IMG/VR virus record: IMGVR_UViG_3300032249_000480
Coordinates: 40,787-104,786 of that record
Strand: one strand, 5' to 3'
DNA from: a virus
Length of the DNA stretch: 64,000 nt
The notes under the pieces are model-generated. The model searched no databases. It was given only the letters and a program-made list of their open reading frames with translations, and was not told the DNA's origin. Both the position numbers and the translations under genes were made by a program. Below are positions 3,541 through 51,830 of the stretch, piece by piece; positions within the stretch are counted from its first letter, which is position 1; every line of letters starts with the position of its first letter.

Positions 3541-3936
3541 ATGGATGGATTAATTAACCCAAAAACTGGTAAACCTATTGTAGAAAATGTTCGTCGCCAA
3601 GTCATTGATAAGCACTATGACTGGGGACTTTATGTGTATAAAAAGGCTAGTGGAGCCTATTTCACAGATGGCGAAGGAAATGTTCTAAATATTCCTTCTA
3701 ATAAAAACGATATTGGTCAAATTAATAAGTTAAAGGCAGCAGCAATTTATCATGGAGATCCTGGAGACGGCAAGGCCGTTTTTGTTCCAGGGCTTACAAG
3801 AGTTACTGAAGAAGAATACTCAGAACAACTAGATAGAATGAAAGCAGGATTAATTCCTTCAATGAACGACCTTGGTGCTTGGAAGGCTGCACAAGACACT
3901 GTTGATAAGTATGGAAGAGGTATTTTAGATGAGTGA
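3541..3936 (+). CDS. Hypothetical protein of the head module
   Basis: ATG 7 nt after TGGTATACT (leaderless geometry); overlaps the portal start. Confidence 0.7.
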   Translation: MDGLINPKTGKPIVENVRRQVIDKHYDWGLYVYKKASGAYFTDGEGNVLNIPSNKNDIGQINKLKAAAIYHGDPGDGKAVFVPGLTRVTEEEYSEQLDRMKAGLIPSMNDLGAWKAAQDTVDKYGRGILDE

Positions 3937-5569
3937 TGATTTTGAGTTTCAATATGTTTCCGCAGCACTAAATACTCAAGAAAAAGATGAGAATCCTTTT
4001 AAGAAAAGCGATCCATTTAATCAAGACTGGAACAACCTTAAAGATCTTTTAGGACTTGAGCAGAACTTTAAACGCCGTACAGCAAGAACAGTAACAAAAG
4101 CAGTTGATACATACAACTCTGCGGTAATGACTCAACAGCCTGCTCCAACTGATCAATATCTTGCAAATGCTAGAGCGAGTCAAGTTGGAGATGGTGCAGG
4201 ATCAAAAACAATAAATCCTGGAACTGTTTATCGTAATGGATATGGAATCTTTGACGTAATTACACCACCATACAATATGTACGAACTAGCCAATTTTTAT
4301 GATACATCTTTTGCTAATCATGCTGCTATTGATGCAAAGGTAGAAAACGTTGTTGGTCTTGGATATCATTTTGAAATGAACGCTCAAACAATGATGAAAT
4401 TATCTGCATCTACTGATGAAGCAGCAACAGAAAGAGCAAGAAGAAGAATTGAAAGACTTAAGATTGATGCAAAAGAATGGATTGAAGGCTTAAACACAGA
4501 TGATAGTTTTACAACTATTATGGAAAAAGTTTACACAGATGTACAGGCAACTGGTAACGGATATCTTGAAATTGGTCGTAAGGTAAATGGAGAAATTGGA
4601 TATATTGGTCATGTTCCATCTACTACAATGCGTGTACGTCGTTTGCGTGATGGATATGTACAGATTATTGGACCACGCTTAGTTTATTTCCGTAACTTTG
4701 GGGCAAAGAATCAAAACCCATTAACATCAGATAATCGTCCTAATGAAATTATTCACTTTAAAGAATACTCTCCGCTAAATACATATTATGGAGTACCAGA
4801 CATTATTGCTGCTATGCCATCTCTTATTGGAGATCAACTTGCTTCTCAGTATAATATTGACTACTTTGAAAACAAGGCTGTACCAAGATATATTATTACT
4901 CTTAAAGGTGCAAAACTCTCTCCTGACGCAGAAGATAAAATGTTTAGATTCCTTCAAACTGGATTAAAGTCTCAATCTCACCGCACTCTTTATATTCCGC
5001 TTCCTGGAGATTCAGATACTAATAAGGTTGAATTTAAGATGGAGCCAATTGAAAATGGTATTCAGGATGGTTCATTTAAAGAATATCGTAAGCAGAATCG
5101 TGATGATATTCTTATTGCCCATCAGGTTCCAATCTCTAAGTTGGGTGGGGCAGACTCAGGTATCGCTGCAGCCCTTTCACAGGATCGCACTTTTAAGGAA
5201 CAGGTTGCTCGTCCAGAACAAGAAAAAATTGAAAAGTTTATTAGCAAAATTGTCAAGGAATTTACAGACATTGTTGAACTTAAATTCAATGAATTAACCC
5301 TTACAGATGAGATTGCTCAATCACAGATTCTTGAAAGATATGTTAAGAATCAAATTATGTTACCTAATGAGGCTCGTGAGATTTTAGATCTTCCACAAGC
5401 ACCTCATGGAGACAAGCCTTTAGAATTAACTGCTAGAGCAGCAGCAGATGCTAATGCTAACAATGCAAAAAATAGATCAAGAGATGCCGAAAGAACAAAC
5501 AACTCATCCGATAGCCCTGCAACAGTTGCTGGTAGGAATCCAAAAGGCACTGGTAGATCATCTCAATAA
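3929..5569 (+). CDS. Portal protein
   Basis: Portal-like motifs TGNGYLEI, EIIHFKEYSPLNTYYGVP, YFENKAVP, DILIAHQVP, PNEAREILDLP; position before protease and capsid. Confidence 0.92.
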   Translation: MSDDFEFQYVSAALNTQEKDENPFKKSDPFNQDWNNLKDLLGLEQNFKRRTARTVTKAVDTYNSAVMTQQPAPTDQYLANARASQVGDGAGSKTINPGTVYRNGYGIFDVITPPYNMYELANFYDTSFANHAAIDAKVENVVGLGYHFEMNAQTMMKLSASTDEAATERARRRIERLKIDAKEWIEGLNTDDSFTTIMEKVYTDVQATGNGYLEIGRKVNGEIGYIGHVPSTTMRVRRLRDGYVQIIGPRLVYFRNFGAKNQNPLTSDNRPNEIIHFKEYSPLNTYYGVPDIIAAMPSLIGDQLASQYNIDYFENKAVPRYIITLKGAKLSPDAEDKMFRFLQTGLKSQSHRTLYIPLPGDSDTNKVEFKMEPIENGIQDGSFKEYRKQNRDDILIAHQVPISKLGGADSGIAAALSQDRTFKEQVARPEQEKIEKFISKIVKEFTDIVELKFNELTLTDEIAQSQILERYVKNQIMLPNEAREILDLPQAPHGDKPLELTARAAADANANNAKNRSRDAERTNNSSDSPATVAGRNPKGTGRSSQ

Positions 5570-5609
5570 CTGAGATGTGTGTTAAAATCTTTGGTATAAT
5601 AGGAGAGAT

Positions 5610-6920
5610 ATGAATATCAATAAAGCCCACTGGTCAACTGAAGGAACAAGTGTTCGTCTCTCAATGCCTTTTGCTAAGGTAGACGCAGAGCGTAGAATTG
5701 TATCTGGTTTTGCAACTTTGGATAACCTAGATAAGCAAAATGATATTGTTACACAAGAAGCAAGCGTTGCCGCATTTGAAAAATTCAAGGGTAATATCCG
5801 TGAAATGCATCAACCATTAGCAGTAGGCAAACTAGTATCATTTAAACAAGATCGCTATTTTGATCCTAGCACAAAAAAATTTTATAACGGAGTATATGTT
5901 TCTGCATATGTTTCAAAGGGGGCACAAGATACTTGGGAAAAAGTACTTGATGGAACCCTTTCAAGTTTTTCAATTGGTGGAAATATCCACAAGTGGGACG
6001 ATGCAATTGATGAAGCAAGCCAAAAGTCAATTAGAATTATTAAAGACTATGACCTTTTTGAATTATCTTTAGTTGATTCACCAGCAAATCAACTTGCAAA
6101 TATTTTGTCTGTACAAAAGAATGCAGATGGACAAACAACCTTTACTGGATCTTCTTCAGAGGTTGTAGTTGAGAATGTATTCTGGGATTCTACAAATGGT
6201 ATTGTTTCTTTATCTCAAAATGATTCAGAAGTGAGTCCAGTTGATGGAACACAAATGAAGAATATAGGCTTTGTTGAAAAAAGTGACAATGAAAAAGCAG
6301 AAATGATAAAATTCTTAGTTGATAGTGCAAAAGGCATTAGTACAATTAAGATGACAAAGGAGGAAAATACAATGACAGAAGATACAAACACAGTCGCTGA
6401 TGCAGAGGTTGAAACAACAACCGCTGATGCACCAGTTGCAGTAGAGTCAGTCGTTGAAGATGCTCCAGAGACAACATCAGAAGAAGTTACAAAGACAGTT
6501 GATGAAGTAATTGCTGAAGACTCTGTTTTGGAAAAAGCAGATGAATCAGTAGATACAGATATTGTTAATGTAGAAAAGTCTGATGAGGCAGTCGCCACTG
6601 CCGTTACAGAGATAAAAGAATCTCTCGCTAATGCCTTTGGAGATTTAACTTCAACAGTTAAATCAATCAGCGACGTAGTTGCTGAATTAAAGAAATCACT
6701 TGATAATGTTACAGAACAAGTTACATCAGTAACTAAGGAAGTATCAGATATTAAGGGTGGAGTAGATGAGTTTGGAAAGAGAGTAGATGCCGTAGAGCAA
6801 GATACCGCTTTCCGCAAGTCTGGCGATCTAGGCGAGATCGTGCAGGAGTTTGCAGAAATGCCAACTCAAAAATCCCTATGGGGCGGACGTTTCCTCAAAT
6901 CATCCGACCTATTTAACTAA
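5610..6920 (+). CDS. Prohead maturation protease (HK97-type) fused to acidic/coiled-coil scaffold
   Basis: RIVSGFA, D..ND.V, EMH, FSIGG, ELSLVDSPAN motifs; acidic low-complexity and heptad-rich C-terminal half. Confidence 0.88.
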   Translation: MNINKAHWSTEGTSVRLSMPFAKVDAERRIVSGFATLDNLDKQNDIVTQEASVAAFEKFKGNIREMHQPLAVGKLVSFKQDRYFDPSTKKFYNGVYVSAYVSKGAQDTWEKVLDGTLSSFSIGGNIHKWDDAIDEASQKSIRIIKDYDLFELSLVDSPANQLANILSVQKNADGQTTFTGSSSEVVVENVFWDSTNGIVSLSQNDSEVSPVDGTQMKNIGFVEKSDNEKAEMIKFLVDSAKGISTIKMTKEENTMTEDTNTVADAEVETTTADAPVAVESVVEDAPETTSEEVTKTVDEVIAEDSVLEKADESVDTDIVNVEKSDEAVATAVTEIKESLANAFGDLTSTVKSISDVVAELKKSLDNVTEQVTSVTKEVSDIKGGVDEFGKRVDAVEQDTAFRKSGDLGEIVQEFAEMPTQKSLWGGRFLKSSDLFN

Positions 6921-6955: not shown

Positions 6956-8080
6956 ATGTCAGAACAAAACACAGAGATCGTAAAGAACTATCCGTCGTCA
7001 ACTTCACCAGCAGGAGCATTTAACTCCGAAGGTACTTTTGCGTCAGGTGGTATCGGATCAGTATCTTCTCCAGCAGGAGGGATACTAGGTAACACAGCCA
7101 CAGCAAATATGGGTGTTACTACTGGACCAAACGCCGTTAGCCCAACAGGTGCACTAGGAGGAATCCTATTGCCAGAGCAGGCTCGTCGTTTCATTGACTA
7201 CGTGTGGGATGCAACAATTCTCGCCCAAGATGGTCGTAAGGTTACTATGAGAGCCAATACGATTGAACTTGAGAAAGTCAACGTTGGTGAGCGTGTAATT
7301 CGTGCAGCAGCACAAGGCTCAAACGATTACACAAACGCTGGTGCTACATTTACTAAGGTGGAACTAACAACCAAGAAGATTCGTCTTGATTGGGAAATTT
7401 CAACTGAAGCACTTGAAGACAATATTGAAGGAGGAGCACTTGAAGACCACATCGTTCGCTTGATGACTAATGCTTTCGGAAACGACATTGAAGATCTAGC
7501 AATTAACGGTGATGGTGCAACAGGTAACTTCCTTTCAATTATGAACGGTTTCGTAAACCGCACAAAGGCTGTTGGTTCAGGAGCACACGAGTCAATCGTG
7601 ACTGTTTCAAACAACGCATGGACAACTGATGTAATGCAAAACATTATCTTGGCAATGCCACGTAAGTATCGTGCACTTAAGTCAAACCTTAAGTTCTATG
7701 CAGGTACAGACGCATTCCAGGGTATTATCAAGCACAACGGAACACTTGCTGATGCAGTTGCAGAAGCATTTGCTAACCGTCCAGCGGGTACACCTGCAAA
7801 CCGTCAGAACTATCTTGATGGAGTTGGACAGACATTCGGTGGAGCACGTACAACTCGTGTTCTAGGAATTGATGTTCAGGAAGTTCCTTACTACCCTGCA
7901 GGATTTGTAGATCTTACATTCCCACAGAACCGTGTATGGGGATTCCAAAGAGATATCACTGTAAACCGTGAGTACAAGCCAAAGAAGGACACTGTAGAAT
8001 ACACAGTATTCGTTCGTTTCGGCGTACAATGGGAAGAACTTGATGCAGTTGCTTACGCAGATGCAATCGCAGAATCCTAA
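6956..8080 (+). CDS. Major capsid protein (HK97 fold)
   Basis: AGGAGGT SD before ATG 6956; GGILLPEQARRFID, EALEDNIEG, EDLAINGD; strongly biased codon use; follows protease. Confidence 0.92.
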   Translation: MSEQNTEIVKNYPSSTSPAGAFNSEGTFASGGIGSVSSPAGGILGNTATANMGVTTGPNAVSPTGALGGILLPEQARRFIDYVWDATILAQDGRKVTMRANTIELEKVNVGERVIRAAAQGSNDYTNAGATFTKVELTTKKIRLDWEISTEALEDNIEGGALEDHIVRLMTNAFGNDIEDLAINGDGATGNFLSIMNGFVNRTKAVGSGAHESIVTVSNNAWTTDVMQNIILAMPRKYRALKSNLKFYAGTDAFQGIIKHNGTLADAVAEAFANRPAGTPANRQNYLDGVGQTFGGARTTRVLGIDVQEVPYYPAGFVDLTFPQNRVWGFQRDITVNREYKPKKDTVEYTVFVRFGVQWEELDAVAYADAIAES

Positions 8081-8106
8081 AAAATAGTTCTTAATTGAAC
8101 CTGATT

Positions 8107-8136
8107 GGGGGGGCGGATAAAACCGCCCCTCCTTTC
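8107..8136 (+). terminator. GC-rich hairpin, probable leaky intrinsic terminator after capsid gene
   Basis: gggggggcgg-ataaaa-ccgcccctcc followed by only a short T run. Confidence 0.65.
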
Positions 8137-8152
8137 CACTTTAAGGAGAAAT

Positions 8153-8398
8153 ATGTCATATTCAAGTACAAATCCAAATCAAACATTAAATGCAGATGGT
8201 GCATTGGCAATTGGTAATGTAGGTGGAGTTATTATAATGGGTACGAATGGATTAATTACTCAAGATAATGCATTAGGGAATATTAATGGAGATGTAATTT
8301 TTGGGGATACAACAGGACCAAATGCAGTAAATCCATCAGGAATACCATCAGGTGGCAAAAAACCACAACAAAATAATTTTATTAGTTATAAAAGATAA
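8153..8398 (+). CDS. 81-aa paralog of the major capsid N-terminal arm
   Basis: AAGGAG SD before ATG 8153. GDTTGPNAVNPSG...PQQNNFISY aligns with capsid GVTTGPNAVSPTG...PEQARRFIDY. Confidence 0.8.
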   Translation: MSYSSTNPNQTLNADGALAIGNVGGVIIMGTNGLITQDNALGNINGDVIFGDTTGPNAVNPSGIPSGGKKPQQNNFISYKR

Positions 8399-8430
8399 GC
8401 ATTCTGGTATAATAAACACAGGAGGATTCA

Positions 8431-8652
8431 ATGACAAATTCAAAAACAGTTAAGCCTGTTAAAGAAGAAATAACAAACAAAGTTAATGAAACAGTAGCAA
8501 TATTTTCTTCTAGAAATTTATATTGGAACGAAGTAGGATCTTTGATTATTGGCTATAACATTGTGTCTTCAGAAAATTCAGAAAGATGGCTGCAACATAA
8601 AGCAGTACGCTTGGCTAGTCCAGAAGAGGTGGCGAAAGCCTACGGTAAATAA
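8431..8652 (+). CDS. Small hypothetical head-module protein
   Basis: Own TGGTATAAT box (8405-8413) and AGGAGG SD. Confidence 0.7.
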   Translation: MTNSKTVKPVKEEITNKVNETVAIFSSRNLYWNEVGSLIIGYNIVSSENSERWLQHKAVRLASPEEVAKAYGK

Positions 8653-26714: not shown

Positions 26715-27136
26715 TGGCAGATGCTGGAATAAAACAAATAAGAATACCAAAAAATGAATTACCACCAGTTGATGAAAATAATTCATATACGCTTAGATAT
26801 AGAGTAGTGTCTGAAGATAAAAACAGATCGTCACATTATTCTCCAATGGCTACTGTAGAGACTGTAACAATTCAAACAGTACCTGGAACTCTTGTAAAAA
26901 ATGGAACATATTCAACAGCCATTTGGGATGATGCAAACAATAATCCCAAATATGATATATTTGTTAAATTTGATGGAGGCTCTTATGTTTATCATGGCAC
27001 TTCTCCAATTCACACATATTCATTTTTAAATACAGGAACTGTAAGTGTTAGAGTATTAGTGCAAATTGAAAGTATACTTAAGGTCAGAAATGCATATTTG
27101 ACAATATTTGAGTCATCTGTGGTATCTCTGGTATAA
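26714..27136 (+). CDS. Hypothetical tail-region protein
   Basis: TAATG-coupled, beta-rich. Confidence 0.55.
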   Translation: MADAGIKQIRIPKNELPPVDENNSYTLRYRVVSEDKNRSSHYSPMATVETVTIQTVPGTLVKNGTYSTAIWDDANNNPKYDIFVKFDGGSYVYHGTSPIHTYSFLNTGTVSVRVLVQIESILKVRNAYLTIFESSVVSLV

Positions 27137-27153
27137 TTAAATAGGAGAATAAA

Positions 27154-51489: not shown

Positions 51490-51823
51490 AGAAGAATTAG
51501 TAGATCAAACCATTGAAAGACTTATTCTAGATGGTGCTCTTGAAATAGGTGGGGTTGATGTAGAAAATGGAGAAATCCTATACAACTTTACTGATAAACT
51601 TAAAGACGTAATGCCAGAACTATACAATGAGCATTTAAATTTTGTAAATGCAGAAATTATGTATCTTTGGGAGCGTGGATTTATTTCTATAGAAGATTTT
51701 TCTGAGGAAAATCCAAGAGTAATGGTGACAGATAAGGCATTTAATGATGAAGAAATATCACATCTTCCTAAAGATAGACAAAGGTCTTTAGAAGAGATCA
51801 AACGAATACTAAAAGTGGTATAA
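51482..51823 (+). CDS. Hypothetical acidic protein
   Basis: ATG 51482 overlapping the upstream stop region. Confidence 0.65.
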   Translation: MDEEELVDQTIERLILDGALEIGGVDVENGEILYNFTDKLKDVMPELYNEHLNFVNAEIMYLWERGFISIEDFSEENPRVMVTDKAFNDEEISHLPKDRQRSLEEIKRILKVV

Positions 51824-51830
51824 TAAAACT

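Follow-up and report, generated by a model that had tools for sequence, protein, structure and literature searches.

A free-standing partial paralog of the capsid N-terminal extension in the head module of a freshwater phage

Small head proteins and the capsid locus

As a rule, the small accessory proteins of phage heads bear no relation to the capsid protein that they accompany. The decoration or cement proteins, such as lambda gpD, T4 Soc, SPP1 gp12 and P74-26 Dec, are small, are encoded beside the capsid gene, are produced late, and are often dispensable and patchily distributed among related phages; lambda gpD contributes an additional strand to the sheet built by the E-loop and N-arm of the capsid protein, and thus provides a precedent for a site that accepts an arm-like strand. 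HK97-fold N-arms make inter-subunit contacts, and T4 internal proteins carry capsid-targeting sequences. T4 gp24, the vertex protein, is a paralog of gp23 that retains the whole HK97 fold. SaPI1 CpmB, a satellite-encoded protein, redirects capsid size and imitates the C-terminal end of the 80alpha scaffold.

The 81-aa ORF described here appears, from its sequence and setting, to resemble head accessory proteins in kind and to be unusual in being a copy of a capsid extension. It shares with the decoration proteins its small size, its place beside the capsid gene, and its apparently late, dispensable and patchy nature, but it has no sequence relation to them (no Pfam or PHROG match), derives from the capsid itself, lacks a confidently predicted globular fold, and has a codon usage and a post-terminator position that argue against hundreds of copies per head. 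Like T4 gp24, it would go back to a duplicated major capsid gene and be the less abundant of the two products; unlike gp24, it keeps the N-terminal extension only. As in CpmB, a small protein would be re-using an interaction motif copied from a core assembly protein, although here the phage itself carries the gene, in its head operon, and the capsid rather than a scaffold is what was copied. In HK97 gp5, the delta domain occupies the same place relative to the HK97-fold core, on its N-terminal side, as the copied segment does here, and a free-standing capsid N-terminal segment parallels the split between delta domains in cis and scaffolds in trans that is drawn in a survey of actinophage capsids. 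Unlike delta domains and scaffolds, however, the segment is Gly-rich, about 65 aa long and not predicted to be helical, and this phage already has a scaffold-like domain on its protease, while the free copy is optional. Finally, the gene recalls the lambdoid morons in being an extra gene between conserved late genes with clean presence or absence, but it brings no promoter or terminator with it, and it shares homology with the structural gene beside it.

The gene belongs to a 105-kb freshwater phage whose virus record, complete at 104,786 bp, has direct terminal repeats; it is located in the right-hand 64 kb of that record. This 64,000-nucleotide stretch is the window that we analysed, and all positions refer to it unless another locus is named. 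The features of the head module that concern us are as follows.

3929–5569: portal (PF04860)
5592–5600, plus strand: extended −10-like motif TGGTATAAT, 5′ of the protease gene (pattern search)
5610–6920, plus strand: S78 prohead protease (PF04586, E 1e-6; phrog_9427, E 7e-118)
6956–8080, plus strand: major capsid protein, 374 aa (PF05065 at residues 69–242; phrog_1623, E 1e-73, from residue 65)
6986–7180, plus strand: capsid residues 11–75, the Gly-rich N-terminal extension and counterpart of the small ORF (joint alignment, hhalign)
8107–8132, plus strand: GC-rich hairpin 3′ of the capsid stop, terminator-like, with a weak U tract (fold computation)
8143–8148, plus strand: Shine-Dalgarno (SD) sequence AAGGAG of the small ORF (from the sequence; AAGGAG is present in relatives too)
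8153–8398, plus strand: the small ORF (P0001), 81 aa, from ATG at 8153 to TAA at 8396–8398, paralog of the capsid N-terminal extension
8405–8413, plus strand: extended −10-like motif TGGTATAAT before the next gene, the downstream edge of the small-ORF cassette
8431–8652, plus strand: following gene of the head module, 73 aa, a shortened member of a 110–180 aa family, corresponding to LukeCage gp52

Past the small ORF come the 73-aa gene, a 320-aa gene and then more genes for head and tail. The protease has a long, acidic, coiled-coil C-terminal half, scaffold-like in look, and the HK97 fold of the capsid protein begins at about residue 69. The SD sequence that the initial annotation had assigned to the small ORF is present as AAGGAG, just ahead of the start codon. 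The closest cultured relatives of the capsid are those of Streptomyces BE-cluster phages, for example LukeCage (44–46% identity, with the match starting at capsid residue 68), whereas metagenome homologs are far closer, with 3647 matches at E ≤ 1e-10 and the best 120 all at least 77% identical. A scan of IMG/VR for capsid relatives gave at least 600 loci.

The 73-aa gene at 8431–8652 is the minimal form of a variable family whose members range from 73 to 180 aa (e.g., L012:5225–5560 and L081:4513–4905). Longer members carry either an N-terminal SAP/Rho_N-like helix-extended-helix domain (weak Pfam matches, E 0.01–0.02) or, alternatively, a long acidic, Pro-rich extension, and the C-terminal domain of the family matches LukeCage gp52 (E 0.001).

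A partial paralog of the capsid N-terminal extension

The initial annotation, made from the sequence alone, had taken the small ORF for a free-standing copy of the N-terminal arm of the capsid protein, and the homology holds at every level of comparison that we applied. BLASTP aligns the small ORF with capsid residues 14–82 at 39% identity over 77 aa (E 2e-8). Because the two sequences share a bias towards Gly, Asn, Thr and Ser, we ran a shuffle test, in which none of 5000 composition-preserving shuffles of either partner attained the real score (104 vs a mean of 31–34; z 11–12.5); the same paralog pair in four relatives scored 143–170 (z 18–21). A profile of 42 small ORFs, searched against the genome itself, found exactly two places, the gene and the capsid N-terminus (E 1.4e-11), and profile-profile alignment with hhalign matched small-protein residues 2–73 to capsid residues 11–75 at 99.1% probability (E 9e-19). 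These results show that the ORF at 8153–8398 is a free-standing partial paralog of the capsid N-terminal extension. The match had at first been drawn end to end, up to about capsid residue 82; across the family, homology stops at about residue 75, and the FISY/FIDY match beyond that point is peculiar to the window's clade, where it does hold.

Nucleotide identity between the small ORF and the capsid segment is about 55–65%, and the divergence at synonymous positions noted earlier is real. Specifically, in the relative L013, 17 of 22 aligned residues are identical, with the same codon at 8 of those 17; neither His residue has the same codon in the two genes, and Ser codons change between AGC and TCT. 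Recent gene conversion is rejected, since conserved residues, including the identical residues in L013, use different codons.

A filter-free profile search of 1.84 billion representative proteins recovered the module in two contexts only, namely capsid N-termini and the small protein. The long repeat proteins P0030, P0035 and P0038 among the profile matches were rejected as composition or repeat artefacts. In two metagenome database entries, P0031 and P0034, unrelated N-terminal sequence, in one case NHL repeat-like, precedes the C-terminal half of the small protein; the most likely cause is a chimeric contig or a misassigned start, not a genuine fusion. The small protein had no relation in Pfam, PHROGs, phage records or the ESM Atlas, and PDB sequence searches with both capsid profiles returned nothing relevant. 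Further, the literature on arm paralogs, partial capsid duplications and Gly-rich N-terminal extensions yielded no equivalent, in agreement with the first impression that none had been described.

What was copied can be delimited closely. In the joint alignment, the small protein starts (Met-Ser-Tyr) exactly at the end of the conserved 10-residue leader of the capsid (Lys10-Asn11-Tyr12), and the homology runs to the Gly-Thr-Pro-Gly-Gly...Pro-Glu-Gln stretch immediately ahead of the first capsid helix. In the LukeCage capsid, the leader and the helix are both present with only about 10 residues between them; Streptomyces phage capsids align from residue 68 only, with 19 residues ahead of that point; and 120 BE-like capsids are 327–337 aa long (one truncated 275-aa entry excepted), compared with 370–388 aa here. 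The copied segment therefore comprises a lineage-specific, Gly-rich insertion of about 50 residues ahead of the canonical N-arm plus the first few residues of that arm. The label "N-arm" is only approximately right, and the inter-subunit role of HK97 N-arms, which had been carried over to the small ORF, is not simply transferable, because the segment mostly precedes the canonical arm. PF05065 begins at capsid residue 69 (69–242), and the small ORF, aligning solely to residues 11–75, stands ahead of this Pfam domain and gives no PF05065 match.

Lys10 is invariant in both clades (76 sequences), and the 10-residue leader (6956–6985) is conserved even in BE-cluster capsids at 45% identity. Given this conservation, and because the homology of the small ORF begins at the very next residue, Lys10 and the leader are a candidate maturation cleavage site or interaction motif. 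An initiator Met is usually removed before Ser, and without it the small protein would begin Ser-Tyr-Pro-Gly; if the protease cuts after Lys10, the capsid would begin Asn-Tyr-Pro-Gly, at the position equivalent to the small-protein start.

Within the shared segment, the five invariant glycines of the capsid extension (G26, G45, G53, G65 and G69) coincide with invariant or near-invariant glycines of the small protein (G16, G42, G51, G63 and G67). Their spacing is irregular on inspection, and an RTX-like 9-residue periodicity was rejected. The centre, in contrast, is polar, Thr/Ser-rich and length-variable in the capsid but hydrophobic and conserved in the small protein, and at the end the small protein stops in a Lys/Arg-rich tail where the capsid continues into its helix. 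Judged by eye from the alignments, some subtypes do not conserve this hydrophobic stretch as such, and a membrane protein was rejected. On the capsid side, the Thr/Ser-rich centre of the extension (7040–7100, residues ~30–48, and its counterparts in relatives) has a dN about three times that of the capsid body, and this loop could be a target of modification.

The tail keeps its basic character across otherwise divergent small ORFs; that of the window's own copy is weakly basic. Such a tail raises the prospect of a packaged internal protein, whose capsid-like part would be a procapsid-targeting signal and whose Arg/Lys tail would bind the DNA or leave with it. The conserved tail character fits this idea, as do the co-variation of the N-terminal motif with that of the capsid (see below), the head-module location and the late reading of the gene. 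However, the shared region makes up nearly the whole protein, leaving only about 8–12 residues as cargo, protease sites are not in evidence, and the tail of the window copy is weakly basic, so that we judge a packaged internal protein quite improbable.

Selection, distribution and expression signals of the small ORF

Among the best 80 of at least 600 capsid loci, 78 were evaluable, and 20 of these carry the ORF, every copy intact and 70–81 aa long. A second scan, seeded with the small-ORF alignment, added 80 loci, again all intact, with 46 distinct proteins. Hence, 101 of the 101 copies found are intact (21/21 and 80/80), with all indels in frame and with start, SD and length conserved, and 22 further clusters in the protein database are all 75–83 aa long. 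Nei-Gojobori omega was 0.08, 0.15, 0.21, 0.22 and 0.29 in the five pairs with unsaturated or moderate dS, values drawn from these pairs because dS is saturated in most small-ORF pairs and omega from distant pairs is unreliable; for the capsid body, it was 0.05–0.17. The small protein evolves faster than the capsid (dN 0.3–0.6 vs 0.1). In a neutral simulation on the tree of 67 unique nucleotide sequences (7.2 substitutions per site), 1.3% of ORFs stayed open, and 0 of 300 runs kept all of them open. The small ORF is shown by these data to be a real gene under purifying selection, as the protein-level selection proposed from its synonymous divergence had implied.

The opposite view, a decaying and functionless remnant of a capsid gene duplication, can point to the many relatives that manage without the gene (58 of 78, as a clean cassette indel). 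However, the 101 intact copies with conserved start, SD and length, the omega values below 0.3 in unsaturated pairs and the neutral expectation of 1.3% intact all speak against decay. A decaying duplicate is excluded, and we assign a functionless remnant next to no probability.

Two other possibilities were rejected. Two in-frame stops separate the genes in the window, and the relative frame varies among relatives, which is at odds with a read-through or frameshift extension of the capsid; and the gene's own SD and start, its selected intact ORF and its nucleotide identity of only about 55–65% are at odds with a silent recombination cassette or diversity-generating template. As a separate observation, one small-protein subtype (L053, L055, L067, L074, L079, L139 and L141) has lost five residues of a Gly-Pro-Asn-Ala-Val block, and in most of its copies one or two conserved cysteines are newly present, potentially as a disulfide or, with the His-x-His motif, as a metal site.

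The gene is present in about a quarter of the close relatives, the 78 evaluable among the best 80 of at least 600 capsid loci, and always lies 65–78 nt past the capsid stop, between the conserved hairpin and the next promoter-like motif. On the capsid-body tree, its presence calls for 7–9 changes, at least five of them on well-supported branches, and we put the number of gains or losses at 5–8. Three close pairs of a carrier and a non-carrier (L055/L048, L079/L075 and L013/L020) differ by a clean indel, in which the capsid end, the hairpin and the downstream TGGTATAAT are common to both and the SD and ORF alone are present or absent; the capsid N-termini of L055, with the gene, and L048, without it, are identical. 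Since the indels are clean and the capsids are near-identical either way, the gene is an optional, dispensable cassette, and the capsid need not change in its absence. It is an insertion into conserved synteny, because the next gene corresponds to LukeCage gp52. In some relatives without the small ORF, an extra, divergent paralog of the downstream 73-aa gene family is found directly 3′ of the capsid gene (L004:1354–1690; L068 and L069, about 98 nt after the capsid stop), which would make the interval past the capsid terminator a probable hot spot for accessory genes.

This patchy, cassette-like distribution with its repeated gains and losses could suggest a non-structural, moron-like role, for example as a decoy of the capsid N-terminus for a host defence sensor, or another host-directed function, and the faster evolution of the small protein and its tracking of its own capsid's N-terminal type would suit such a role. 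Morons have their own promoter and terminator, but this cassette consists of the SD and ORF, and the hairpin and the TGGTATAAT motif occur in genomes without the small ORF too. Lacking its own promoter and lying behind the capsid terminator, a decoy would be made late and below the level of the protein that it mimics, and the strict capsid-adjacent position favours a head function. We regard a moron-like role as very unlikely.

The signals around the gene bear on its expression. The hairpin at 8107–8132 has a 10-bp GC stem (76-nt fold, −30.5 kcal/mol, z −4.6) and an equivalent in relatives with and without the small ORF, in which the stem sequence differs and the pairing is kept. A consensus scan called no plus-strand terminator at the hairpin, because its T-run is weak, and no promoter-like site between the hairpin and the small-ORF SD. 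Exact copies of TGGTATAAT occur four times in the window (5592–5600, 8405–8413, 27129–27137 and 51816–51824), where chance would give 1.3. The first two flank the unit of protease, capsid and small ORF, and the copy after the small ORF is conserved in relatives; as a putative promoter, the copy at 5592 likely marks the start of the protease-capsid transcript. With the motif standing before the protease gene and again after the small ORF, the small ORF is apparently reached by read-through alone.

Codon usage runs in the same direction, the small ORF being made up of non-optimised codons. In the window, GC3 is 0.09 in the small ORF, 0.33 in the capsid gene and 0.15–0.28 in neighbouring genes, and Asn is encoded by AAT at 12 of 12 positions in the small ORF but by AAC at 23 of 27 in the capsid gene. 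Across 21 genomes, GC3 is 0.09–0.23 in the small ORF and 0.28–0.36 in the capsid gene, with the Asn preference reversed in all. Together, the codon usage, the position behind the hairpin and the lack of a promoter-like motif point, indirectly but consistently, to a small protein much rarer than the capsid. The leaky terminator and lower output suggested at the outset are in keeping with the codon usage and with the conserved hairpin and its weak T-run; the terminator itself is not called by the consensus scan. In the minimum-energy fold, 8084–8099, just past the capsid stop, pairs with 8140–8154, which covers the small-ORF SD, and encloses the hairpin; this predicted pairing could occlude the ribosome-binding site of the small ORF.

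Low expression signals, a dispensable gene and a copied segment at the position of the HK97 delta domain, N-terminal to the Pfam domain, are also what might be seen in a modulator of assembly or maturation that is absent from the virion and competes for a putative procapsid partner of the capsid extension. The portal is one possible partner, and the protease another, through its active site or its scaffold-like C-terminal half; the modulator would tune nucleation, size or cleavage timing and may itself be degraded. The scaffold-like coiled coil on the protease agrees with this scheme, as does the lack of a confident autonomous fold: AlphaFold2 gave the small protein a pLDDT of 47.7 from 42 sequences, with two short strands only and no confident fold, and gave the capsid a pLDDT of 39.5 from a 48-sequence alignment (75–93% identical), too poor to place the extension. 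On the other hand, these low-confidence models contain no helix in the segment, which is rich in Gly, Asn, Thr and Ser and in this respect unlike known delta or scaffolding domains, and a competitor made at a low level could do little against the most abundant late protein without a high affinity. A modulator of this kind seems to us rather unlikely.

Coupling with the capsid and possible function

The N-terminal 20 residues fall into types, one with His-x-His (HxH) followed by Gly-Asp-Gly and another with Leu-Asn instead, and the small protein and the capsid are of the same HxH type in 58 of 58 distinct genomes, a concordance that amounts to about one event, because it coincides with a single deep phylogenetic split of the carriers. 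Among carriers, capsid position 91 tracks the His/non-His split equally well, and across 109 distinct capsids no body position tracks the HxH motif better than 82%. Partial Mantel tests, which are inflated by shared ancestry, gave r = 0.40 for the small ORF against the capsid N-terminus given the body and 0.21 for the small ORF against the body given the N-terminus; the capsid body is closer to the small ORF on the DNA than the capsid extension is, yet it has the lower r. The case for concerted evolution of the small protein and the capsid extension is, on these sequences, moderate and not decisive. Concerted evolution would be expected if both bind the same site or each other.

The explanation that we prefer, tentatively and at a little below even confidence, is that the small protein is a sub-stoichiometric, non-essential head accessory that docks where the capsid extension docks, with a remodelled centre and a basic tail. 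Under this explanation, the small ORF would descend from a second, tandem copy of the capsid gene that was later truncated, and its product would be made late and in small amounts through read-through of the capsid terminator. The small protein would dock at the capsid extension's site, either on the capsid lattice or on an assembly partner; the same docking site is the most likely one, since the small protein retains the extension's motifs at both ends together with its invariant glycines. A function missing from the capsid arm would come with the basic tail and the remodelled, hydrophobic centre of the small protein. One consideration counts against same-site docking: if the capsid extension is cut off in maturation, there may be no lattice site to share.

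The filling of arm sites left empty at the portal vertex or pentons, as first proposed from the sequence, would be a specific case of this head-accessory explanation and fits the low expression. In its strictest form, the small protein would be a stand-in in trans for the capsid extension, either co-assembling with the extensions or occupying their docking site, at a few special positions of the shell, such as the portal vertex, where five capsid subunits are missing. Such a stand-in would account for the low expression and the dispensability of the gene, for the invariant glycines common to both proteins and for the way in which the N-terminal motif of the small protein co-varies with that of the resident capsid, but we hold this form to be doubtful, while still preferring a head accessory in the broader sense.

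In these phages, the flexible N-terminal extension of the capsid alone has been copied, and the copy has long been kept in abundant uncultured freshwater phages, with thousands of capsid homologs in metagenomes. Should the small protein share the docking site of the capsid extension, nature would here provide an assembly contact in trans, and the protein could serve as a probe for what the Gly-rich extension binds. If the portal-vertex stand-in is true, a symmetry mismatch would be patched by a dedicated paralog of one capsid arm. The pairs of near-identical capsids with and without the gene (L055/L048, L079/L075 and L013/L020) make the question directly testable. Even if the gene acts otherwise, it would still show a partial duplicate of a structural gene gaining a new function.
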